Under the pieces are notes generated by a model. It was not told the DNA's origin. It made no database searches and saw nothing but the letters and a program-made list of their open reading frames with translations. A stretch of DNA of 64,000 bases, taken from assembly GCA_030645615.1 (NCBI GenBank), contig JAUSNB010000014.1:33710-97709 (forward strand), written 5' to 3'. Position numbers and translations under genes: made by a program. Below are positions 3,026 through 8,682 of the stretch, piece after piece. Numbering within the stretch: the stretch's first letter is position 1; each line of letters opens with the position of its first letter. The DNA comes from Actinomycetota bacterium (GTDB taxonomy: Bacteria > Actinomycetota > Actinomycetes > S36-B12).

Positions 3026-5740
<2,715 letters not shown>

Positions 5741-5779
5741 GTCTCTCCTGTCTTGGCCCGGGCGGGGTGCACGGGACCG

Positions 5780-5828
5780 TCAGTGCGAACGTTGCATCTT
5801 CATGCTCGTGCGCTCATGGGGTGTTCAT
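5780..5828 (-). promoter_or_regulatory. Chain of three ATGA-overlapping mini-ORFs in the infB leader (MNTP*, MSARA*, MKMQRSH*)
   Basis: Minus strand ATG AAC ACC CCA TGA (5828-5814), ATG AGC GCA CGA GCA TGA (5817-5800), ATG AAG ATG CAA CGT TCG CAC TGA (5803-5780); GGGAGTGA SD-like sequence upstream of the first. Translation and regulatory role are inferred. Confidence 0.6.
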
Positions 5829-5865
5829 CCTCGAATCACTCCCGATCCGCTGGACCTGAGCTTGG

Positions 5866-6186
5866 TCAGGCCTTGCCGGCCCCGGACGGTTGCCCGGGGG
5901 TCGTGCCCTGCTCCAGCTCGACGCGCACGGCGACCAGGTCCAATGGACCCGGGGCGCGTAGTGCGCGAGCCAAGGACCGTCGGCGCTCGGCGCGCTCCAG
6001 GCACTGCAGGTCCGGATGCAGGTACGCACCACGGCCCGGCAGCCGCCGGCCAGGATCTGGGACACAGGCCCCGGACACCGCGACGACCCTCAACAGGTCT
6101 GTCTGTGCAGACCGCCCCCGGCATCCCACGCAGGTGCGCACGGGACCGGGCGGACTGCCCGCCAAGGAGTGTACCTCGCCGGACAC
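5866..6186 (-). CDS. ylxR: YlxR/RnpM (DUF448) family RNA-binding protein
   Basis: PVRTCVGCR and LPGRGAYLHP motifs, between nusA and infB; start set to GTG at 6186 (uncertain). Confidence 0.9.
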   Translation of the reverse strand: MSGEVHSLAGSPPGPVRTCVGCRGRSAQTDLLRVVAVSGACVPDPGRRLPGRGAYLHPDLQCLERAERRRSLARALRAPGPLDLVAVRVELEQGTTPGQPSGAGKA

Positions 6187-6191
6187 CCGGC

Positions 6192-7193
6192 TCAGTCCGT
6201 GGCCGGGCCGGGGGCTACCGGGCCGGCGACTGCCGTGTCGGCCCGGATGTCGATGCGCCACCCCGTGAGGCGGGCCGCCAGCCGGGCGTTCTGGCCCTCG
6301 CGGCCGATGGCCAGGGACAACTGGTAATCCGGGACGATGACCCGGGCGGCACGAGCGACCGGATCCACGATCAGCACGCCGGACACCCGCGCAGGCGACA
6401 GCGCGTGCGCGATCATCTCCGCCGGGTCATCGGCATGGTCGACGATGTCGATCTTCTCGCCGTTCAGCTCGGCCATGACCTGGCGCACGCGCTGGCCCAG
6501 CGGTCCGATGCAGGCGCCCTTGGCGTTGACTCCCGGGACCGTGGAGCGGACGGCGATCTTCGTGCGGTGCCCCGCCTCCCGGGCGATGGCGGTGATCTGG
6601 ACGGAGCCGTCGGCGATCTCCGGCACCTCAAGGGCGAACAGGGCCTTGACGAGGTTCGGATGGGTCCGCGACACGGTCACCTGCGGTCCCTTGAAGCCCT
6701 TGCGGACATTGGTGACCAGGCACTTGATCCGGGTGCCGTGCGGGTAGGGCTCCCCGGGCGCCTGCTCCTCGGGCGGCAGGTTGGCCTCCACCTTGCCGAT
6801 GTCGACCCGCACCATGCGCGGGTTGCTGGACTGCTGGACGACCCCGGAGACGAGGTCGCCCTCGCGGCCGGAGAACTCCAGCATGGTGGCATCGCCCTCG
6901 GCGTCCCGGAGCCGGGCCAGGAGGACCTGCCGGGCGGTCGTCGCCGCTATCCGGCCGAAGCCATCCGGGGTGTCGTCGAACTCACGGAGAATCACGCCGT
7001 CCTCGTCGGTCTCGGCCGCCCAGACCGTCACGTGGCCGGTCTTGCGGTCGAGGGTCACCCGGGCCTTCGCGGCCGCCCCCTCGGTGCGGTGGTAGGCGAC
7101 AAGGAGCGCCTGCTCGATCGTCTCGACCACGAGGTCCAGCGAGAGGTCCTTCTCGCGCACAAGCGCCTTCAGCGCACTGACGTCGATGTCCAT
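6192..7193 (-). CDS. nusA: Transcription termination/antitermination factor NusA
   Basis: [50 protein letters not shown]. Confidence 0.98.
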
Positions 7194-7198
7194 GGTCG

Positions 7199-7711
7199 CT
7201 ACTCCTCATCCTGCTGGGCCTCGTCCTGCCGGGCCTCGTCCGCGGCGGGAACCCGGTTGAACTCCACCTGGACGAGCGCGCTGTCCACGGTGGCGATATC
7301 AAGCAGGACGTCGCCCGTCGCCGTGGCGAGCGTCACCTGCTGCTCGCTCGGCATGCCGGCGATCCGTCCGTCGACAACCGTGCCGTCGCTGCGGGCCACG
7401 TGCACGAGGCGCCCCTTGGCCCGGCGCCAATGGCGCGGCTCGGTGAGAGGGCGGTCGACCCCGGGTGAGGTCACCTCGAGCACGAAGGGCCCCGGCAACT
7501 CGTCGGACAGCGGCGGCTCGTCGAGGAGTGCGGAGGCCTGCTGGCTCACGGCGGCGACGAGGTCGAGGTCGACTCCCCCGTCCTTGTCGATGACCACCCG
7601 CACGACGTGGCGGCGACCCACCTTGGCCACCTCGACGGCCTCGACGTCGACGCCCATGCTCGCCAGCGGGCCGGACAGCCCGGACTTGACCACGTCTGCG
7701 GATGCGGTCAT
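7199..7711 (-). CDS. rimP: Ribosome maturation factor RimP
   Basis: [24 protein letters not shown]; ATG at 7711 with GGAGG; the ORF-track N-terminal extension is spurious. Confidence 0.95.
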
Positions 7712-7798
7712 GGCGCCTCCCGGGGATCCTGTTGTGGTCGAGCAGTTGTCGGTCTTGGTGGTACCGGAACTGTACCCACCGCATGCCATCCTTGGCAC

Positions 7799-8281
7799 AT
7801 GCCAGCGCCAGCACGGCCCGTCCGCCTGACCAGGCGCCAGGCCCTGGCCGGGGTTGCCACGCTCGGGCCGGTCGCCTTGCTCGCCGCCTGCAGCAGCGGC
7901 GACACGCCGGACGAGCCGGTGCCGTCGTCGCCGGAGCAGACCGTTGCCTCGGCGCAGGCCGCCGCCGAGCAACGGCTGATCGACGGGTACGAGGCCACGA
8001 TCGCCGCCCATCCCGGCCTCGCCGCCACTCTCACCCCCCTCCGCGACCAGCACATGGCCCATGCTGACGCACTCGGTGGCAGCCCGGGCGCCGGGACGGC
8101 CACCGTCGCGCCATCGCAGGGCGCGGCCATCGCCGCCCTCGTGACGGCCGAGCGCCAGGCCGCGCGCGACCGCATCGGCGCCTGCGTCGAGGCCAGGGAG
8201 CCCGGACTGGCCCGGCTGCTCGCGTTCATCGCCGCGTCGGAGGCCTCCCATGTCCCCGCCCTGCGGAGCCTGGGGGCATGA
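7799..8281 (+). CDS. Tat-type lipoprotein with ferritin-like helical domain
   Basis: LTRRQALAG twin-arginine motif, lipobox LLAAC, AAE..L...Y / H..H / ASEASH helices; CATCCT-N6-ATG leaderless start. Confidence 0.8.
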   Translation: MPAPARPVRLTRRQALAGVATLGPVALLAACSSGDTPDEPVPSSPEQTVASAQAAAEQRLIDGYEATIAAHPGLAATLTPLRDQHMAHADALGGSPGAGTATVAPSQGAAIAALVTAERQAARDRIGACVEAREPGLARLLAFIAASEASHVPALRSLGA

Positions 8282-8682
8282 CCGCCCAGGAGGCGTGGCC
8301 AGCGGTCGTCGCCGGGGAGGACGCGGCGGTGTTCGCGTACTCAGTGGCGGGCGCGCGGGTGGCGACGTCGGAACTCCGCGCCGCGCGGGCAGGACTGGAC
8401 GCCCACCGGGCCAACCGCGACCGGGCCGCGAGCCTGGCAACGCAGGCCGGGGGAACACTGCCGACGCCGGCGGCCGCGTATGAACTCCCGTTCCCCGTGC
8501 GGACGCCCGGGCGGGCTCGCGAATTGCTCGCGCTGGTCGACAACCGACTGGTCGCGCTGTATGCCGAGGCAGCAGAGGCAGCCGCGGGCCCGGACCGCCG
8601 GTGGGCAGCCAGGCGCGCGGCGGAGTGCGCCACCCGAGCGGTCAGCTGGGGCGCGGCTCCGCAGGCCTTCCCGACCGGCTGA
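8278..8682 (+). CDS. DUF4439 ferritin-like domain protein
   Basis: AGEDAAVFAY, HRANRD, AAAYELPFPV, C-terminal WGA...AFP; ATGA overlap with upstream lipoprotein. Confidence 0.85.
   Translation: MTAQEAWPAVVAGEDAAVFAYSVAGARVATSELRAARAGLDAHRANRDRAASLATQAGGTLPTPAAAYELPFPVRTPGRARELLALVDNRLVALYAEAAEAAAGPDRRWAARRAAECATRAVSWGAAPQAFPTG

Follow-up and report, generated by a model that had tools for sequence, protein, structure and literature searches.

Translational attenuators of the ermC/cat type are governed by a leader ORF and by alternative hairpins in the leader RNA. The leader ORF is short, and the position of the ribosome on it determines which of two competing helices forms; one of the two masks the region in which the main gene starts. 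A general description of leader-ORF translational attenuation is found in the accessible part of PMC13236596. The leader of infB, the gene for translation initiation factor IF2, which is discussed here, resembles these attenuators in having short leader ORFs and a pair of helices that exclude each other, one of them masking the start region. However, no conserved peptide or stalling codon is present, and a chain of three coupled mini-ORFs is found. Moreover, a ribosome at the end of this relay would close, rather than open, the start site, and the switch is composed of three arms instead of four.

IF2 is an essential protein, and for two other translation factors, IF3 and RF2, self-control loops are textbook knowledge. 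In the case of prfB, self-control is exerted via a frameshift at a UGA codon. In the case of infC, a poor start codon is read by IF3 itself, as mentioned in the accessible part of PMC5472188. The infB leader is similar to these systems in that the control element is part of the gene, or of the leader, of the factor itself and would test the very step in which the factor acts. In contrast to infC and prfB, the device in infB would consist of serial reinitiation plus an RNA switch, and no special codon is involved. A literature search for a self-control loop of the infC/prfB kind for IF2 did not yield any, and the sections available of PMC6511841 cite only NusA-mediated feedback on the operon.

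Two further systems are based on reinitiation. In Mycobacterium tuberculosis, termination-reinitiation at NUGA overlaps, including overlaps between two upstream ORFs (uORFs), has been reported (bioRxiv 10.1101/2022.06.01.494293, available portion). The overlap there is also four bases long, and the downstream ORFs likewise lack a Shine-Dalgarno (SD) sequence. To the extent covered by that portion, the work is a genome-wide catalogue, in which neither a serial relay nor a linked RNA switch is described. The yeast GCN4 mRNA contains four short uORFs that exert reinitiation control (PMC4793210, in part). As in the infB leader, the uORFs are very short and arranged in series, and the output would follow the ease of reinitiation and the supply of the initiator tRNA complex. 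Unlike the infB leader, GCN4 depends on eukaryotic scanning, stop and start codons do not overlap, an RNA switch is lacking, and the target is a transcription factor and not an initiation factor.

The infB locus was analyzed in a 64-kb stretch of DNA, hereafter the window, in which Pfam matches reveal the gene order rimP, nusA, ylxR, infB, rbfA, truB on the minus strand. The longest ORF containing ylxR spans positions 5866..6261 (YlxR/DUF448; PF04296, E 1.2e-20) and ends with a TGA stop codon at 5868-5866; its true start is probably located further downstream. The infB gene (3026..5740, minus strand) encodes an IF2 of 904 aa with the Pfam domains IF2_N, GTP_EFTU and IF-2, and it starts with a GTG at 5740. 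The two genes are separated by a spacer of ~125 nt. Further upstream, the longest ORF bearing the RimP_N domain (7199-8458, minus strand) encodes 419 aa, but the domain is found only at residues 264-335. Either the gene actually starts far downstream of the first codon of this ORF or its RimP carries a long N-terminal extension.

The original prediction placed a relay of three mini-ORFs, coupled by ATGA overlaps, in this spacer, and direct reading of the minus strand shows that they are present. Mini-ORF1 (ATG AAC ACC CCA TGA, encoding MNTP) is located at 5828-5814 with its stop codon at 5816-5814, and it is preceded, 10 nt 5' of its ATG, by the SD-like sequence GGGAG (5843-5839). The ATG of mini-ORF2 (MSARA, 5817-5800, stop codon at 5802-5800) at 5817 overlaps the stop codon of mini-ORF1 as ATGA, and the ATG of mini-ORF3 (MKMQRSH, 5803-5780, TGA stop codon at 5782-5780) at 5803 overlaps that of mini-ORF2 in the same way. 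The hairpin at 5778-5755, the infB SD AGGAG at 5749-5745 and the GTG at 5740 are also as described before. A possible fourth link, running from a GTG at 5839 to a TGA at 5827-5825, was proposed as well. It does exist in the window, where the ATGA junction thus occurs twice, or three times when this weak link is included, but it is not conserved: of the 22 loci examined from the genus, only 7 contain it.

How unusual such an arrangement is can be judged only partially from one genome. The pattern ATGA-N6..12-ATGA-N6..12-ATGA has one match in the window, where 0.05 would be expected, and at least one match was obtained in 5 of 100 shuffled sequences. When any start codon is allowed, chains of three mini-ORFs give 46 listings, representing ~35 distinct places, on both strands of the 3.6-Mb genome; inspection of this list by eye revealed that the chain in the infB leader is the sole one with three linked ATG starts. 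As chains with any start codon are not rare, a single genome proves little, and the weight rests on the comparison between genomes. It is chiefly the conservation across genomes that bears out the earlier notion that the relay is unlikely to have arisen by chance.

For this comparison, the conserved N-terminus of IF2 was located in relatives, and the 200 nt upstream of it were read. A chain was defined as at least three ORFs, each of at most 14 codons, that are joined via a 4-base or a 1-base overlap. The collection comprised 194 loci, of which one (L103) was dropped as no start codon was found; 30 loci that had been selected by pattern (L031-L060) were kept outside all counts, and four loci whose genomes carry an unpublished flag (L081, L093, L095, and L096) were excluded from the final chain counts and from the alignment-based, codon, SD, folding-cost and position analyses described below. 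In the order to which the window belongs, 38 of 39 genomes have a chain of at least three mini-ORFs upstream of infB, and in other orders of the class 97 of 101 genomes do. Among 19 genomes from other classes of the phylum, a set that includes genomes flagged as unpublished, none had such a chain in the 200 nt upstream of infB. Controls, in which the four unpublished loci are included, contained a chain in 16 of 780 and 35 of 2040 cases after dinucleotide shuffling, i.e., about 2%, and in 2 of 39 and 3 of 102 cases after reversal of the sequence. Since the relatives are not independent of each other, the chain counts describe the breadth of the phenomenon and not its statistical weight. In three of the five genomes of the class that were missed (L143, L144, and L151), the last ORF is longer and the end point is the same; in L143, it consists of ~21 codons and, hence, exceeds the limit of 14.

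A strict pattern, anchored on the infB start, was recovered in 87 of 301 genomes of the order, and the reversed control pattern in none. Many of the genomes that did not match contain variants of the pattern. In one family of the order (f7), with genomes of 1-2 Mb, the strict pattern was found in only 2 of 88 genomes. The two leaders of this family that were read (L029 and L191) contain fewer, longer and more loosely arranged ORFs and have a lower GC content. Thus, the relay may be decaying or may have been remodeled in this streamlined family.

With a relaxed pattern, at least 120 loci were detected among species-representative genomes. The IF2 N-terminal motif follows in 119 of the 120 matches listed, and all 80 titles among these listed matches belong to or fit Actinomycetota. 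Named carriers include Streptomyces, Mycobacterium, Mycolicibacterium, Micromonospora, Rhodococcus, Gordonia, Amycolatopsis, Nonomuraea, and Acidipropionibacterium. Judging from these named carriers, by which the class is identified here, the class in which the relay is kept would include both Streptomyces and Mycobacterium.

The leaders differ in some details. In L154 (locus ~234-316, + strand), an 11-nt unit consisting of ATGA and 7 nt is present three times in tandem and provides extra links to the relay, which suggests that the relay expands and contracts through the duplication of complete mini-ORFs. A conserved stretch, GGAAGC(A/G)GGTCGAG, is found ~10-30 nt upstream of ORF1 in the majority of orders in the class (e.g., in L085, L120, and L167), and GGGAG..CGAGG takes its place in the order to which the window belongs. 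This stretch may serve as an SD or standby site only, or it may have a further role, for instance as a promoter element.

As a check, the original prediction asked whether the register of the ATGA and GTGA junctions, and not the peptide sequence, is kept. This is indeed the case: the register is conserved across the class and the peptides vary. ORF1 encodes MSAR, MNTP, MSTR, and other peptides; ORF2 encodes MSTQR, MSTRA, and others, and the product of ORF3 is very variable. A conserved stalling peptide or sensor codons were not encountered in the leader ORFs, where only the ATGs are invariant. In most relatives, ORF1 has 4 codons, ORF2 has 5 and ORF3 has 5-7. These exact lengths were found in 85 of 136 chains, or in 95 when an ORF2 of 4 codons is allowed. 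The distances between neighboring ATGA tetramers are 2 modulo 3 (11, 14, or 17 nt) in 250 of 278 cases. The junctions are of the ATGA type in 310 cases, and the variants GTGA (13), TGATG (6), TTGA (3), and TAATG (1) keep the coupling. The final stop codon of the relay is TAA in 51, TGA in 45 and TAG in 40 leaders, and it is located at a median distance of 42 nt from the infB start. The counts of junctions, stop codons and ORF lengths include the unpublished locus L081, the removal of which would shift any of them by a few at most.

Base-pairing energies with the anti-SD, for which the generally known anti-SD motif was used, distinguish the first ORF of the relay from the others. The median duplex energies are -6.1 kcal/mol for ORF1, -2.7 for ORF2, -1.9 for ORF3, and -7.4 for infB. 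An SD of -6 kcal/mol or stronger precedes ORF1 in 52% of the leaders, ORF2 and ORF3 in 1% each, and background positions in 14%. For infB, an SD of this strength was found in all 135 leaders. Hence, ORFs 2 and 3 show two hallmarks of termination-reinitiation, i.e., a NUGA or one-base overlap with the preceding ORF and the lack of an SD of their own. RNAalifold did not detect any conserved pair in 98 relay regions, i.e., the distinct sequences with canonical lengths of ORF1 and ORF2 among the 135 leaders, and the only invariant columns were the ATGs. The preserved register, the coupled variants, the free use of stop codons and the restriction of the SD to ORF1 argue for translated, coupled mini-ORFs and not for an RNA motif or a protein-binding motif.

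The segment between the relay and infB contains a second element. Folding of the region from the last stop codon to position +36 of infB revealed, in many species, two competing structures, which are mutually exclusive because they use the same middle arm. In the window, arm 1 (GGTCCCG, 5778-5772, minus strand) begins 1 nt past the stop codon of ORF3. Arm 2 (GCCCGGGCC, 5763-5755, minus strand) can pair with arm 1 in helix A, i.e., the hairpin noticed before, or with arm 3 in helix B. Arm 3 (GGTTCGGGT, 5732-5724, minus strand) consists of codons 3-6 of infB, which encode K-V-R-V. Formation of helix B places both the SD and the start codon of infB inside its loop, as is evident from the sequence and the fold. 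Thus, as in translational attenuators, the start region of the main gene is masked in one of two alternative pairings. The window itself has a weak helix A of 5 pairs, including one G-U pair, and its minimum-free-energy fold already contains the 9-bp helix B between 5763-5755 and 5732-5724. As a whole, the leader of the window is not significantly more stable than shuffled sequences when folded as a single sequence (z = -1.36).

Perfect complementarity of arm 2 and arm 3 over 8 positions was found in 108 of 134 leaders, a count in which L081 is included and from which two leaders without the AAG anchor were dropped. Where the arms differ from those of other species, they do so together: GGCCCGCG is found with CGCGGGCC, GGTTCGCG with CGCGGACC, and GGTCCGTG with CACGGACC. 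In a MAFFT alignment of 128 distinct leaders, 92.7% of the cells of helix B are paired, and at most 56% in slid controls. The covariation score of helix B is 0.209 as compared to 0.156 after shuffling, with 0 of 500 shuffles reaching as high a value. For helix A, 91.6% of the cells are paired in the 128 sequences, and the score is 0.235 vs. 0.161, again with 0 of 500 shuffles as high. The shuffles ignore relatedness, and arm 3 is additionally constrained by the protein that it encodes, which should be kept in mind when these scores are considered. In a column of arm 2 that is shared by the two helices and contains A or G, the corresponding T or C is found in both partners.

The position of the switch relative to the relay is also conserved. 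Of 121 leaders, 95 have an arm 1 that starts 0-6 nt past the last stop codon, with 1 and 4 nt being the usual distances, and in the remaining 26 leaders no good arm 1 was found between the stop codon and arm 2. The median distance from the end of arm 2 to the infB start is 14 nt. In the examples read from mycobacteria-like leaders and from some others, the arms are GAGGCG and CGCCTC(C), and arm 2 can pair with the infB SD. In the mycobacteria-like leaders, arm 1 resembles a decoy SD and arm 2 an anti-SD directed against the SD of infB and not against codons 3-6, which would represent the same logic with a different third arm. In several of these mycobacteria-like leaders (L063, L069, L071, L073, L198, and L222), the second junction is GTGA.

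The imprint of helix B extends into the coding sequence. In arm 3, Val is encoded by GTC or GTT in 110 of 111 leaders and by GTG in none, whereas GTG accounts for 241 of the 1137 Val codons in the remainder of the first 110 codons of infB. Likewise, CGG is used for the Arg of arm 3 in 102 of 132 cases, compared to 97 of 541 in the background. We attribute this strong bias at codons 4-5 of infB to the pairing between arm 2 and arm 3. The switch would, thus, explain why the first codons of infB are chosen in such an unusual way.

Originally, the relay was suggested to control access to the infB start or, alternatively, transcriptional read-through. The covarying three-arm switch, the first arm of which lies within a few nucleotides of the last stop codon, offers a concrete candidate for the former. 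The latter was dropped, as no terminator-like site was detected at 5650-6300 and the hairpin is followed by AAGACAGGAG, which lacks a T-run. A scan for sigma-70 promoters in the same segment was also empty, and a scan of 5000-7500 against Rfam 15 with E-values up to 10 gave no match in the spacer and one unrelated weak match at 5178-5210. Another candidate, i.e., read-through of the ORF3 stop codon with the production of a longer IF2, was rejected as ORF3 is in frame with infB in only 80 of 136 leaders.

We consider it an even proposition that the ylxR-infB spacer is a class-wide translational attenuator for infB, consisting of the relay and the three-arm switch. In this model, ribosomes would be loaded at the SD-led, 4-codon ORF1 and would be handed over to the 5-codon ORF2 and then to the 5-7-codon ORF3 by termination-reinitiation at the overlapping stop and start codons in ATGA. 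When the end of the relay is free of ribosomes, arm 1 would pair with arm 2, leaving the SD and the GTG of infB accessible. When a ribosome translates or terminates at ORF3, it would cover arm 1, and arm 2 would then pair with arm 3 and close the initiation region of infB. Hence, more flux through the relay would result in less translation of infB. This negative sign is suggested by a thermodynamic model, in which pairing was forbidden for 12 nt from the stop codon onward as the presumed cover of a terminating ribosome, a length based on generally known sizes of ribosome footprints. With these 12 nt blocked, the median modeled cost of opening the infB start region was 18.3 kcal/mol, compared to 9.4 kcal/mol without the block. 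Of 130 leaders, 123 showed an increase, 6 showed a decrease and 1 did not change.

What the relay would sense is a separate matter. As three successive initiations are required to reach the last stop codon, the flux through the relay may depend steeply on the initiation capacity of the cell, i.e., on IF2, fMet-tRNA and free ribosomes. Such a steep dependence could generate negative feedback on the synthesis of IF2: when initiation becomes limiting, traffic through the relay would drop steeply, infB would open, and IF2 would be restored. We regard it as conceivable, but lean against it for now, that the three serial reinitiations constitute a steep meter of IF2/fMet-tRNA capacity and, thereby, a GCN4-like self-regulation of IF2 in essentially all members of the class sampled. 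Initiation at infB itself needs IF2, which makes the gain and even the sign of the feedback loop uncertain. Furthermore, IF1 and IF2 were reported to promote the loss of short peptidyl-tRNAs (Karimi 1998, cited in PMC10192219), which could reverse the dependence of the relay flux on IF2. The relay might just as well respond to IF3, the recycling factor, formylation or free ribosomes; IF2 or initiation capacity is the presumed signal.

The main rival is positive coupling, in which ribosomes would remain bound to the mRNA after ORF3, melt the local structure and reinitiate at the GTG of infB, ~42 nt downstream, so that the relay would activate infB and tie its expression to upstream translation of ylxR or of the operon. 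We deem this unlikely. NUGA overlaps are a common coupling device in the operons of M. tuberculosis, according to the available portion of bioRxiv 10.1101/2022.06.01.494293, and the median distance between the last stop codon and the infB start given above fits this explanation as well. Moreover, in a few leaders, such as L157, the last ORF ends directly at arm 2, where a terminating ribosome would open helix B. However, infB has a strong SD of its own in every leader in which it was evaluated, and a ribosome at the usual stop codon covers arm 1 and not arm 2, which frees arm 2 to close the start region; the modeled increase in opening cost in nearly all leaders is likewise at odds with activation. 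Finally, the conservation of helix B and the codon bias at its distal arm point to a functional closed state that lies beyond the reach of a ribosome in the relay.

A second rival, which appears improbable, is that ribosomes on the mini-ORFs protect the leader by blocking Rho loading or RNase attack, with the hairpins acting as independent stabilizers. Translated uORFs do shape Rho-dependent termination in M. tuberculosis (bioRxiv 10.1101/2022.06.01.494293, available portion), and a separate regulatory input upstream of infB has been reported in two actinobacteria: a WhiB7 ChIP peak is located there in Mycobacterium abscessus (PMC10727445, in part), and infB belongs to the SigR regulon in Streptomyces (PMC5472188, in part). 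Protection would, however, leave unexplained why the last stop codon is placed so exactly before arm 1, and it does not account for the covarying helix between arms 2 and 3 or for the codon bias in infB; besides, the spacer to be protected measures merely ~125 nt. The third rival, in which the AUGA repeats form a non-translated RNA element, either as binding sites for a protein (e.g., YlxR, NusA, or IF2) or as part of a structured RNA, is very improbable: although three tetramers with a constant distance between them are reminiscent of the targets of multimeric RNA-binding proteins and the neighboring gene ylxR presumably encodes an RNA-binding protein, the start spacings step by three, the GTGA, TTGA, TGATG, and TAATG variants keep the coupling and break the motif, all three stop codons are in use at the end of the relay, an SD is found before the first unit only, and the relay regions and the spacer yielded neither conserved pairing nor an Rfam match.

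The translational attenuator that we propose is built from parts of known kinds, i.e., NUGA coupling and leader-ORF attenuation with alternative helices. What appears to be undescribed is the serial relay as a sensor, the connection of this relay with a switch in which the first infB codons take part, and the class-wide conservation; the switch is new relative to the original prediction. No description of mini-ORFs or of a switch upstream of infB was found in a full-text literature search outside subscription journals. The main text of the Ribo-RET paper on M. tuberculosis (PMC9094748) does not mention infB, but its supplementary tables may list these ORFs. Similarly, infB and nusA do not occur in the main text, as far as available, of the Term-seq preprint (bioRxiv 10.1101/2022.06.01.494293), the supplements of which may contain the mini-ORFs as anonymous entries.

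A device that is present in nearly every sampled genome of a class that holds major antibiotic producers as well as pathogens would reveal how the components of initiation are kept in balance in these bacteria. If the feedback on IF2 is real, it would be the first bacterial case, as far as the literature search reaches, of serial mini-ORF reinitiation being used as a sensor, by which the cell may gauge how well it can initiate translation and may regulate this ability. It would also supply the missing self-regulation loop for IF2 and would be at work in Mycobacterium and Streptomyces, too.

The locus is also represented in metatranscriptome data. Of the runs X1-X20, X1, X2, X3, and X14 were aligned to the window, and the small shares of X2-X13 carry no weight as evidence. 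In one run (X1), a 523-nt contig spans positions 5630-6152 of the window, from within ylxR through the spacer into the beginning of infB, with 5 differences, all of which are located outside the relay. This contig indicates at most that the sequence is present in an RNA library, where DNA carry-over is possible; strand, transcript ends and translation are beyond the information that contigs can provide. In a related contig from another run (X14), 146 nt at 5382-5529 are swapped for 149 other letters. This segment is located inside infB, in the low-complexity region of the N-terminal part of IF2, which looks variable between close relatives.
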